Of a stretch of 32,000 nucleotides of DNA, positions 2,743 through 28,833 are shown piece by piece; position 1 is the stretch's first letter, and every line of letters begins with the position of its first letter. Location: the NCBI RefSeq assembly GCF_047786645.1, contig NZ_JBLNNI010000012.1:46286-78285 (forward strand). The letters are read 5' to 3'. Both the position numbers and the translations under genes were made by a program. Source of the stretch: Methanobacterium sp. MZD130B. Its GTDB lineage: Archaea > Methanobacteriota > Methanobacteria > Methanobacteriales > Methanobacteriaceae. Under the pieces are notes generated by a model. It saw only the letters and a list, made by a program, of their open reading frames with translations. It searched no databases and was not told where the DNA came from.

Positions 2743-2880
2743 TTCTACTGTAGAAATTATTATTCATTGAGTGATTGGATATATTTGCTTTCATCATTGT
2801 GGTTGCTGGATTTTTCTACTGTAGAATTTTATAATTGTTTTTTTTTAACAAACACAAAACATTGTTCTTCTACTGTAGAA
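2743..2880. repeat. Cluster of three perfect 13-bp palindromes TTCTACTGTAGAA (2743-2755, 2814-2826, 2868-2880)
   Basis: Read directly from the sequence. Arms are TTCTAC/GTAGAA around a central T. Start-to-start spacings are 71 and 54 bp. The cluster lies between the convergent 3' ends of the 2365-2673 (+) and 2931-3923 (-) genes. Confidence 0.9.
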
Positions 2881-18367: not shown

Positions 18368-18409
<42 letters not shown>

Positions 18410-18423
18410 TTAGGAGATCAATT

Positions 18424-19209
18424 ATGGCGGAAGTTATAGCAATTTTAAATCAGAAGGGAGGTTGTGGTAAAACCACCACTGCAGTTAATCTTTCTACTTC
18501 ATTAGCACTTTATGGAAAGAACATATTGGTTATAGACATGGATCCTCAAGCTAATGCTACCACTGCATTTGGTTTGGAGAAAAATGAAGATAATTCAATA
18601 TATCGAGTTTTAACAGGACAACAAACTCTGGATGAGGCTATTGTTGCAACTAAAATATCAGGATTAGATCTTCTTCCCAGCCACATCTCTCTGAGTGGTG
18701 CCGAAATCGAACTTAGCAAGGATATAGGATTTCCATTTATTCTTAAAGAGACTATGGATGATGTTCAGGAGAATTACGATTATATTTTTTTGGATGTGCC
18801 GCCTTCCTTAGGTATACTGACAATAAATTCATTAGTAGCTGCTGATAGTGTCATAATTCCAATTCAAGCTGAATTTTATGCATTAGAAGGAATGGCTGAT
18901 CTGTTAGATGCCATGAACTTAGTGGAAACTCGTTTAAACAGTCCTTCACCCATCAAAGGAATCTTAATCACCCTTTATGATTCTCGAACTAGGTTAGGTA
19001 GGGATGTTTACCAGAATGTAAAGCAATTCTTTGGTGAGACAGAGTATATCTTTAACACAACGATCCCTCGTAATGTGAAGCTGGCTGAAGCACCTAGCCA
19101 TGGCAAACCATGTGTAATTTATGATGAGGAATGTGTTGGAACTGAAGCATATAATGACCTTGCCAAGGAAATTTTAACAATGAACGGGCAAGGAACGGAG
19201 GAAGCATAA
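18424..19209 (+). CDS. parA: ParA/Soj/SegA-type partition ATPase (deviant Walker A)
   Basis: 261 aa. Deviant Walker A NQKGGCGKTT, MDPQ motif and Walker B IFLDVPPSLG. No N-terminal HTH extension, so a small type Ib/chromosomal class. Its stop overlaps the next start (TAATG). Confidence 0.9.
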   Translation: MAEVIAILNQKGGCGKTTTAVNLSTSLALYGKNILVIDMDPQANATTAFGLEKNEDNSIYRVLTGQQTLDEAIVATKISGLDLLPSHISLSGAEIELSKDIGFPFILKETMDDVQENYDYIFLDVPPSLGILTINSLVAADSVIIPIQAEFYALEGMADLLDAMNLVETRLNSPSPIKGILITLYDSRTRLGRDVYQNVKQFFGETEYIFNTTIPRNVKLAEAPSHGKPCVIYDEECVGTEAYNDLAKEILTMNGQGTEEA

Positions 19210-19601
19210 TGACTCCATCAAAAAAGAGTGAAAAAGCATTAGGTAAGGGATTAGACGCTTTAATTCGTAAAGAAAAATCAGAATCTACCGTAAATACGAA
19301 AAAATCTCCTATGAAGGGGAACGTTTCGATTAAAGGTTCTGCTATAGAAAAACCAAAGACAAGAAAAGTCAGGAAAACTCAAGAAGATCCTTACAAAATG
19401 ATTTTTGAAGGTGTTGTACTAGAAGTTCGCAAGAATCCGCGCATATCCCTTTGGTCAGCAAAATCCGCAGCCGTTTTTAGATTTTTAAAAAAAACTAAAC
19501 CTGCATTTAGTATTAGCAAAGAGGCGTCAGTGCTTATTGAAGAAGCCGTGCAACAGAAGTATCCTGAAATCTGGGAATTGTTTGAAGACGAAGAATTTTA
19601 A
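19209..19601 (+). CDS. Small partition-adaptor candidate (SegB / mini-ParB-like): ParB-type N-terminal peptide, basic linker, putative RHH C-terminus
   Basis: 130 aa, translationally coupled to parA with a GGAGG SD. Residues 10-19 ALGKGLDALI resemble the conserved N-terminal GLG(K/R)GLxAL(L/I) peptide of bacterial ParB/Spo0J. No ParB/Srx CTPase or HTH region is visible. The C-terminal RISLWS / AKSAAVFRFLKKT / SKEASVLIEEAVQQ pattern fits a strand-helix-helix layout. Confidence 0.6.
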   Translation: MTPSKKSEKALGKGLDALIRKEKSESTVNTKKSPMKGNVSIKGSAIEKPKTRKVRKTQEDPYKMIFEGVVLEVRKNPRISLWSAKSAAVFRFLKKTKPAFSISKEASVLIEEAVQQKYPEIWELFEDEEF

Positions 19602-19608: not shown

Positions 19609-19819
19609 AAATTTTCTCATGAGGTTACGATTATCAGAGAAAAAAATCTTTCAATATCCTGTTCAACATATTAATTAATAGCTATACTACTTTAAAAATT
19701 GATTAACTATTTGACACATTGATCTTGATAAAAGATGATTTTTGATTTGAATATCACAAAAATTGATTTTCTATTGTTGCGTCTAGAACTCTAATCAAAA
19801 ATATGAAATGACATGAATT

Positions 19820-19861
19820 ATAACATATAAGTTATAACTAATAACTTAGAACTTATAAGAC
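19820..19861 (+). repeat. Six consecutive 7-bp units ATAACAT-ATAAGTT-ATAACTA-ATAACTT-AGAACTT-ATAAGAC
   Basis: Read directly. The last 28 bp match the 18382-18409 array at 24 of 28 positions in the same orientation. Contains the 10-bp palindrome AGTTATAACT. Overlaps the last codons and stop of the radical SAM gene on the minus strand. Confidence 0.6.
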
Positions 19862-20976
19862 AATGTTGTTTGATGATTTTTATCAAGTTTTAAGAATGGC
19901 TCTGCTCTTTTAACAACCACCCCTAACCTTTTAATCTCATCCAATTTCGTAAATTTCATTCCATTTTTCCTTGCTTCAATAATCTTTCTCGCAGAAATTT
20001 TACCTATTCCTGGAACACGAAGTAATTCTTTAAAACTAGCTTCATTTATTTCCATGGGGAACAATTCTTTATGGAGTTTGGCCCAGACCAATTTTGGATC
20101 ATCATCCAAGAAAAGAAATCCATCATCATCCAACACCAACTCATCAAAAGAAAAACCATACGAATTTAAGAGAAACTGAGCCTGATACAAACGAGGTGTT
20201 CGATTATCAGCAGGTTTTTCATGCTCTTCCATCGGAGTCTTTTTCAGAGGTTCAAAGGGGCTTAAATAACTTAAATTTATATTCAGATGTTTATTCAGCC
20301 ATTCGGCCCGTTTGAGTATGTCTTGATCTGTTTCATCATTAGCACCCACAATTAACTGTGTACTTTGGCCAGAAGGCGCCATTTGAGGGTGGCGTTTCTT
20401 CAAACGTTCGATCCATTTCATTCTACGCAAAACATCATTATGATAATCTTTGGTACTAGTGAGTTCTTCAAAACCAGAAGAAGTAGCTGATTCGAGGTTT
20501 ACACTGACCCGGTCAGCAAGGCTCATTGCCCTTTTTATCATATCATAAGAAGCCCCTGGAATTATTTTCAAGTGTATATATCCACGGTATTCATATTCTA
20601 ATCGTAACTTCCTGGCCACAGCAATCATTTTTTCCATGGCTTGATCAGCATCTCCCGGCATTCCTGAACTTAAAAAAAGTCCTTCCGCATAATGATTCTG
20701 ATAGTAATGAAGGAAAACCGTTATTAATTCTTCTGGAGTGAATTCAATTCTCTCAAAACGATTGTGGCAATGGTTTATGCAGTAATTACAATCATTAGTG
20801 CAAAAATTACTCATTAAAACCTTGAATAATGGAACTTGACAACCACCTTGTGTTCGTGCATTATAAATTCCTGGAAGATTTTTGGATGTGAAATTTTCCT
20901 GGTTTAAACTCACATAGTTACAAAGGTCGTATTGTGAGGCCTCCCCTAGAATGCGTAGTTTTTCTATGTCCATCAT
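19846..20976 (-). CDS. Radical SAM protein with C-terminal helix-hairpin-helix domain (putative DNA modification/repair radical SAM class)
   Basis: 376 aa. CxxxCxxC cluster motif CTNDCNYC preceded by ASQYDLC. C-terminal HhH motif [19 protein letters not shown]. Confidence 0.75.
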
Positions 20977-22550: not shown

Positions 22551-22709
22551 GTCTACAGTAGAAACAAAAATCTTGTAGATCTCAAAATTGCTATTATTCA
22601 TCTTATTATTTGTGCCAGAAAATGTAAGAAACATTTCTACTGTAGACCGATAGTGCTCGGTGAATTTGCTGAATTTGTGATTTTGCACTGTATTTATTCT
22701 ACAGTAGAA
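22551..22709. repeat. Second cluster of three TCTAC-W-GTAGA palindromes (GTCTACAGTAGAA 22551-22563, TTCTACTGTAGAC 22635-22647, TTCTACAGTAGAA 22697-22709)
   Basis: Read directly. Same 11-bp core as the 2743-2880 cluster. An additional half-site-like TCTTGTAGATCT is at 22571-22582. Located 73-231 nt downstream of the CbiA/CfbB stop and about 280 nt upstream of the next start. Confidence 0.9.
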
Positions 22710-28696: not shown

Positions 28697-28712
28697 GAAA
28701 TCTCCTTTACTA

Positions 28713-28733
28713 ATAACTTATAACTTATAATTA
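28713..28733 (+). repeat. Iteron copy ATAACTT-ATAACTT-ATAATTA (contains exact 20-mer ATAACTTATAACTTATAATT)
   Basis: Read directly. Lies 17 nt upstream of the ferredoxin ATG (28696, minus strand) in the ferredoxin-hisB promoter region. Confidence 0.7.
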
Positions 28734-28805
28734 CTAATTCATTTTTTAAAATTTGATTTAATTTACGTTTGAAACATTTAATCTTATTAACGCTCTTATG
28801 GAGTT

Positions 28806-28833
28806 ATAAGATATAACTTATAACTTATAATTT
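28806..28833 (+). repeat. Iteron copy ATAAGAT-ATAACTT-ATAACTT-ATAATTT (contains exact 20-mer at 28813-28832)
   Basis: Read directly. The 20-mer starts exactly 100 bp after the 28713 copy. The array ends 21 nt downstream of the stop of the minus-strand flavoprotein gene (stop at 28855-28857). Confidence 0.7.

Follow-up and report, generated by a model that had tools for sequence, protein, structure and literature searches.

A SegB-type protein with a ParB-type N-terminal peptide, a Soj-type partner ATPase and candidate origin-proximal centromere arrays in Methanobacterium

Among archaeal partition systems, SegAB has to our knowledge been studied only in Sulfolobales. The SegB of Saccharolobus solfataricus (Sso) has been solved as a ribbon-helix-helix (RHH) dimer, built in the order helix 1, strand and three helices (PMC8682754). 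Euryarchaeal orthologues, including those of Methanobacteriales, have also been published, in accounts that call SegB unrelated to ParB, take the N-termini of the euryarchaeal proteins to be lineage-specific domains whose function is unknown, and propose transfer from the Sulfolobaceae (PMC5120986, PMC12284271, bioRxiv 2025.04.15.649018). In bacteria, the ParA-binding motif of M. xanthus ParB has been mapped by mutagenesis to L11, R13, L15, L18 and I19, with the four aliphatic residues required for ParA binding and R13 for ATPase stimulation, and about half of bacterial ParBs carry K at the R13 position (PMC12462528). We focus here on a stretch of 32,000 nt from Methanobacterium sp. MZD130B (contig NZ_JBLNNI010000012.1, positions 46,286 to 78,285; hereafter the window, whose coordinates are used below unless contig C12 is named), and on the 130-aa protein encoded in it at 19209..19601 (+), directly behind a ParA-family gene. 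We consider it probable that this gene encodes the SegB-type centromere-binding protein of the Methanobacterium chromosome-partition operon, acting with arrays of a 7-bp heptad in a ParABS-like ratchet.

The 130-aa protein is, as judged from its sequence, a SegB orthologue. Translation of 19209..19601 reproduces the open reading frame and the residues quoted in a first-pass annotation of this DNA (residues 8-21, EKALGKGLDALIRK; 78-83, RISLWS; 84-96, AKSAAVFRFLKKT; 103-118, SKEASVLIEEAVQQKY), and a profile of 26 orthologues retrieves Sso SegB from the PDB (hmmsearch; 7DUV, E=1.4e-10; 7DV2, E=7.4e-8) over residues ~37-127. The C-terminal 67 residues (61-127, 19389..19589, +) are assigned by this homology to the dimerising SegB-type RHH DNA-binding domain, which would comprise helix 1, the NPRISLWS strand and three helices. 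The published SegB signature, K/R-D/N-P-K/R-I-G/T-V/L-W-S (bioRxiv 2025.04.15.649018), reads here K75-N76-P77-R78-I79-S80-L81-W82-S83, with serine at the G/T position as its sole departure, and is invariant in 68 orthologues. An AlphaFold2 (AF2) model based on the 68 orthologues has a predicted local distance difference test score (pLDDT) of 82-92 for residues 60-127 and places helices at 61-75, 81-96, 102-117 and 119-127, in agreement with the crystal description of Sso SegB (PMC8682754), while NPRIS (76-80) occupies the place expected of the strand. When Sso SegB is aligned with the window protein, its base-contacting residues K52, W56 and K75 (PMC8682754) fall opposite R78, W82 and S101; because K52 and K75 are replaced, the same domain probably reads a DNA sequence different from that of its Sulfolobus counterpart.

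No Pfam or NCBIfam profile matches the 130-aa protein (E up to 1), which thus contains neither a ParB/Srx nor a helix-turn-helix (HTH) domain, and PF02195 (ParB_N) is found nowhere in the 99.75%-complete genome. The first-pass annotation had described an RHH-like end of non-ParB type, devoid of a ParB/Srx CTP-binding box (GERRxR) and of an HTH, and had named a SegB orthologue as an alternative to a 'minimal hybrid adaptor'; the description and the alternative are confirmed. Because the orthologue profile matches 7DUV, there is no new hybrid class: the protein belongs to a published family whose euryarchaeal clade has been described (PMC5120986, PMC12284271) and which is nearly universal in the phylum. 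As a member of that family, the protein also cannot be demonstrated to be the 'evolutionary bridge between type Ia and Ib' that had been proposed. The gene is single-copy in the genome, and its ATG overlaps the TAA stop of the upstream 261-aa ParA gene (ATAATG, 19207-19211). A Soj-like parA lies directly 5' of segB in 72 of 80 related loci, all from Methanobacteriales, and this overlapping ParA-SegB order is typical of SegAB. A database search returned 771 relatives, nearly all from Methanobacterium or Methanobacteriaceae. Many orthologues (P0002, P0020, P0026, P0037 and others) are named 'AAA family ATPase' by NCBI despite having no ATPase domain, a label probably carried over from the neighbouring gene.

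At the opposite end of the protein, residues 8-21 (19230..19271, +) form what we regard, on their sequence, as a real ParB-type ParA-binding motif. L11, K13, L15, L18 and I19 coincide in residue and numbering with the M. xanthus motif, K standing for R13, and the segment A10-L-G-x-G-L-D-A-L-I19 is invariant in the 68 orthologues. A 23-column profile of the archaeal peptide, run against 177,635 PDB sequences, gave six matches, headed by residues 4-18 of T. thermophilus Spo0J (E=0.015) and including residues 1-19 of H. pylori ParB and 3-19 of C. crescentus ParB. A degenerate form of the motif occurs six times in 800,000 residues of six-frame open reading frames of the genome, and N-terminally only in SegB. 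Invariance, rarity in the genome and the ParB matches in the PDB together place the motif above chance. In a scan of 1.84 billion cluster representatives, 185 proteins reached E<=0.001; among the best 150 of these 185, 149 were examined (50%-identity clusters), and 81 of them carry [LVIM]-G-x-G-[LIVMF]-x-x-[LIVMF]-[LIFM] within their first 60 residues, the median start in the family being residue 11. At the central position, 242 motif-bearing sequences have R in 123 and K in 100, a mixture that resembles the bacterial one (PMC12462528). With only about ten residues to go by, the peptide may descend from ParB or may have converged upon it.

The resemblance to the bacterial ParB N-terminus that had first been noticed is therefore upheld, residue for residue against M. 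xanthus and throughout the 68 orthologues, and profile searches lead from the N-terminal peptide to ParB N-termini and from the orthologue family to SegB (7DUV). K13, which the annotation had proposed to mutate, is a sensible target for mutagenesis, but with K or R in 223 of the 242 sequences its position is not strictly invariant. The peptide is followed by the Lys-rich linker of residues 22-60 (19272..19388, +), of which 28% are K or R and which aligns poorly and varies in length and sequence among orthologues. Its pLDDT falls below 50 for residues 22-57, so that it is predicted to be disordered, in keeping with the earlier description.

The ATPase encoded immediately upstream (18424..19209, +; 261 aa, deviant Walker A KGGCGKT), the 'SegA' of this lineage, is of the Soj type. 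It matches Pfam AAA_31 (5.6e-64) and CbiA (1.5e-25), and its top PDB matches are bacterial chromosomal ParA/Soj proteins (8RAY, 2.6e-62; 6IUB, 1.2e-58; 1WCV, 6.4e-58), against which it scores 199-214 bits with 42-46% identity, compared with 70 bits (E=1.5e-18) and 29% identity for Sso SegA (7DUT). The picture is similar for an Archaeoglobaceae homologue, whose SegB begins MKRLGRGLDAIIG: with Thermus Soj it reaches 222 bits and with SegA 76 bits. Sso SegA itself reaches only ~67 bits against Soj. In a MAFFT alignment, the peptide pocket of M. xanthus ParA (V116, L150, L152, L155, L187 and L192, together with the invariant Y81 and E117) reads I, L, I, I, L, L, Y and E in the window ATPase, and is similar in the ParA proteins of Methanothermobacter, Methanobrevibacter and Archaeoglobaceae. 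Sso SegA, on the other hand, has L, L, T, I, S, A, K and E, and half of the pocket is thus absent. On the side of the peptide, 49 of 53 Sulfolobales SegB proteins begin with MSELDFLL followed by a basic run, keeping the LDxLL half and lacking LG(K/R)G. Because the pocket is kept along with the LG(K/R)G peptide and is half absent from SegA, we infer that peptide and pocket co-vary across lineages. One Archaeoglobales metagenome contig (L085:645-1401) contains a parA that seems frameshifted near 750, with the call starting at 754 and the Walker A upstream of it; we take this for either an error of assembly or a pseudogene, and this ATPase is left out of the pocket comparison.

The candidate DNA partner of SegB is an array of heptads with the unit TTATAA(C/G), which in the other register is the near-palindrome TAASTTA. 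The array upstream of the operon (18373..18408; ATAAATA TTATAAC TTATAAC TTATAAT TTATAAG), a candidate operator and centromere site of SegB, lies 16-51 nt 5' of the parA ATG and is the genome's top-scoring one, with 27/28 against (TTATAAS)x4. A downstream array (19811..19860; ...TTATAAC ATATAAG TTATAAC TAATAAC TTAGAAC TTATAAG) lies between the convergent segB and radical-SAM genes, ~210 nt 3' of segB, and since it is flanked by two 3' ends it is no promoter. The last codons of the radical-SAM/HhH gene (19846-20976, -) overlap this array, so that coding sequence and repeat share the same letters. A pattern scan placed two further intergenic arrays at 28711..28731 (TAATAAC TTATAAC TTATAAT), 9 kb from the operon, and at 28804..28831 (TTATAAG ATATAAC TTATAAC TTATAAT), and two more outside the window, at C12:39603-39637 and C12:44311-44345. 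Throughout the 2.03-Mb genome, six array clusters score at least 23/28 against the same pattern; ten order-5 Markov genomes yielded no such cluster, with a top score of 22. All six are intergenic, one of them between two 3' ends, and lie on contig C12 at 39.6-75.1 kb, a span of ~35.5 kb. The same contig carries the main orc1/cdc6 gene at ~27.4-28.6 kb, ~18 kb before the window start and 36 kb from the operon; in three other genomes, the spacing between cdc6 and operon is 36-41 kb, and all heptad arrays lie to one side of cdc6.

This arrangement is not peculiar to one genome. In four relatives from three genera, arrays likewise cluster around the operon near cdc6, and reversed-pattern controls gave 0-1 matches. 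In a complete Methanobacterium chromosome, which has cdc6 at 595 kb and the operon at 634 kb, all matches fall at 610, 633.5, 635.0 and 665.5 kb. The clustering is also seen in a Methanothermobacter and in a Methanobacteriaceae metagenome-assembled genome, and largely in a Methanobrevibacter draft. In the 72 loci whose segB has a parA next to it, we counted runs of three or more phased AASTT cores. Per kb there are 0.89 in the 700 bp upstream of parA, 0.19 downstream, none within the operon, 0.009 elsewhere and none in reversed sequence, which is an enrichment of about 100 times upstream of parA. Two Archaeoglobi loci also have AASTT-core heptads directly upstream of parA, one of these operons standing between two cdc6 genes beside repeats like origin recognition boxes (ORB). 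In this Archaeoglobaceae locus (L084:4239-4947), ~seven copies of TTTCTCATTAAATTGAAA, probably origin recognition boxes, lie alongside the parA-segB operon and its two flanking cdc6/orc1 genes. A conserved heptad site fits the invariance of the DNA-reading strand of SegB, and the S. acidocaldarius segS site likewise consists of three 7-bp repeats, [AGNGTNN]x3. The omega protein is the classic RHH heptad binder. On these sequence patterns, the 7-bp heptad arrays near the replication origin are probably the centromere of SegB.

We propose that the SegB RHH domain would bind the TAASTTA (TTATAAS) arrays in the manner of the omega repressor, each heptad taking up one dimer. The upstream array, which overlaps the parA promoter, could thereby provide autoregulation, and the further arrays across a 36-kb zone adjoining orc1/cdc6 would mark the origin region as centromere. 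The flexible Lys-rich linker would display two copies per dimer of L11-G-K13-G-L15-D-A-L18-I19, and this peptide is envisaged to fold into a short helix, from which K13 may touch the conserved Tyr/Glu site and bring about ATP hydrolysis, as shown for bacterial ParB. The whole would act as a ParABS-like diffusion-ratchet in which an RHH protein replaces the CTP-dependent ParB clamp.

A number of observations weigh against this reading. In the AF2 monomer model the strand region is coil, with the beta strand unformed, so that of the strand-helix-helix end described in the first-pass annotation the helices appear in the right order but the strand does not. Searching the PDB with this model by Foldseek yielded nothing significant (best E 0.9), as is to be expected of an RHH monomer with 40% disorder, and the assignment of the fold rests for this reason on sequence homology. 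The central motif residue is non-basic in 19 of the 242 motif-bearing sequences (M in 12), and the window ATPase has S and R in the places of D110 and E82 from the Arg-binding site known in M. xanthus. The Methanobrevibacter draft genome (G004) has a few arrays on other contigs, and TTATAA resembles the archaeal TATA box, so that some arrays could be promoter elements. Finally, homology carries the identification of the two proteins, while we infer the binding of the arrays by SegB and the activation of ParA in the Methanobacterium lineage from sequence.

The TATA-like character of the heptad opens the way to an explanation in which the arrays serve another factor, such as a TBP/TFB promoter element, Orc1/Cdc6 or a nucleoid protein, and SegB binds some other sequence. 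One candidate is the palindrome TCTACNGTAGA (TTCTACWGTAGAA), present in only six copies in the genome, in two triplets that flank the operon in the same zone (window 2743-2880 and 22551-22709), and with a half-site, GTAGAA, that resembles Sulfolobus S1 (Sso S1, TACGTAGAAGAGTCTAGACTGAC). We rejected the TTCTACWGTAGAA palindromes as a conserved SegB site, since they are not kept in the corresponding zone of four relatives, where matches are scattered and at control level, yet the beta strand of SegB is invariant; we treat them as a species-specific, unexplained feature. Nor does the window show any enrichment of the Sso S1 core GAAGAGTCTAG (4 matches against 5.9 expected), whereas the heptad arrays have been conserved next to the operon from genus to genus and also in Archaeoglobi, and one of them sits between two 3' ends. 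We thus consider this explanation unlikely.

It is also conceivable that SegB is a mere transcriptional autorepressor of the parA operon, with the arrays as its operators and without any centromere role. The strongest array overlaps the parA promoter region, and repression is also a function of RHH partition proteins such as ParG and omega. Four of the six arrays, however, are 9-25 kb from the operon beside unrelated genes, the multi-site, origin-proximal pattern is kept in other genera, and a conserved ParA-binding peptide would be pointless in a pure repressor, all of which makes this possibility very unlikely. The role of the peptide itself may be questioned in another way: the basic residues R20 and K21 could be what activates the ATPase, as may hold for Sulfolobus SegB (LDFLLKKKRK), leaving to LG-K-G some other function, such as self-association or the recruitment of another partner. 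Sulfolobales SegB keeps only LDxLL and a basic run and yet activates SegA through residues 1-21 (PMC8682754), and 8% of the motifs are without a basic central residue. Against this, the peptide matches, position by position, the M. xanthus motif mapped by mutagenesis, the hydrophobic pocket with Y81/E117 is kept in the partner ATPase and not in SegA, and the central R/K ratio is like that of bacteria; we therefore judge it quite unlikely that LGKGLDALI is not the activator.

Of 329 genomes of the phylum, 309 contain the SegB domain, as do 215 of the 223 high-quality ones, and it occurs in all 30 genera. Some related genomes (G071, G079, G080, G084 and G085 of the coded genus g10; proteins P0221, P0423, P0394, P0397 and P0413) have two to three SegB-domain genes, and the additional genes include 100-120-aa paralogues without LG(K/R)G, which may belong to plasmids or integrated elements. 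The family as such is known; in the open-access literature that the search covered, we found no mention of the partner's Soj identity, of a ParB-type motif or of heptad arrays as centromere. As read from these sequences, the peptide-and-pocket switch known from mapping in bacteria would, in the euryarchaeal branch, connect an RHH protein with a canonical Soj, and this branch would offer a natural experiment in which ParA is activated by a ParB-type peptide without a CTP-dependent clamp. With a gene that is nearly universal across the phylum, and with a candidate centromere that is concrete, conserved and near the origin, chromosome segregation in methanogens becomes directly testable. A wider proposal, which we put forward tentatively and regard as possible rather than probable, is that Soj, SegB with its ParB-type peptide and the TAASTTA heptad together represent the ancestral and widespread form of SegAB, core in Methanobacteriota and next to oriC in Archaeoglobi. 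If so, Sulfolobales SegAB would be derived, having branched off and lost the LG(K/R)G half as SegA diverged, and the published direction of transfer would be reversed. The ParB-peptide/ParA-pocket switch would then span the bacterial-archaeal divide independently of the ParB CTPase clamp, and euryarchaeal methanogens would have, in the heptad arrays, their first defined chromosomal centromere.

Among the systems with which this locus can be compared, HpaB of Haloferax volcanii pHV3 resembles what is proposed here: it is a centromere-binding RHH protein of an archaeon, its gene follows one for a ParA of bacterial origin, and its interaction is N-terminus-dependent. It differs in serving a secondary chromosome; compared by description, it is reported to have no sequence similarity to known centromere-binding proteins and to be SegB-like in predicted structure only (PMC13722703). 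The type Ib proteins omega (pSM19035) and ParG (TP228) share with the 130-aa SegB, as proposed here, the small RHH dimer and a flexible N-tail that activates a small ParA, and omega in addition binds arrays of contiguous 7-bp heptads and autoregulates. This likeness is architectural only, as no Pfam match (E up to 1) places the 130-aa protein in the ParG or omega families; unlike them, the SegB system belongs to the chromosome and the core genome and is located beside the origin, and the motif in its tail is of the chromosomal ParB type.

Closest by homology among the known systems is the SegB of Sulfolobales (SSO0035, 7DUV/7DV2, and that of S. acidocaldarius). The two have homologous C-terminal RHH domains (E=1.4e-10), a gene that overlaps the 3' end of a ParA-family gene, a disordered N-tail that acts on the ATPase (as it would do here) and binding sites that adjoin the operon, here in the form of candidate sites, with a 7-bp repeat also in the segS of S. 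acidocaldarius. They differ in the N-terminus (MSELDFLLKKK against LG(K/R)GLDALI), in the partner (an atypical SegA against a canonical Soj), in the site (the S1 palindrome against the candidate TAASTTA arrays) and in two aligned base-contacting residues (K52 and K75 of Sso SegB against R78 and S101). The hosts differ as well, the methanogens considered here being rod-shaped and dividing with FtsZ, whereas Sulfolobales are spherical and ESCRT-dividing. Bacterial ParB/Spo0J, as in M. xanthus, T. thermophilus and H. pylori, is built quite differently from the 130-aa SegB, which has no ParB/Srx CTPase, HTH or C-terminal dimerisation domain, and for which a CTP-gated clamp or sliding is not possible because the CTPase domain is absent; its DNA would be read by the RHH ribbon. 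What the two have in common is a motif for ParA binding at the N-terminus, in its hydrophobic positions and central R/K, a Soj-type ParA partner with a peptide pocket, and the clustering of sites, here candidate ones, near the origin.

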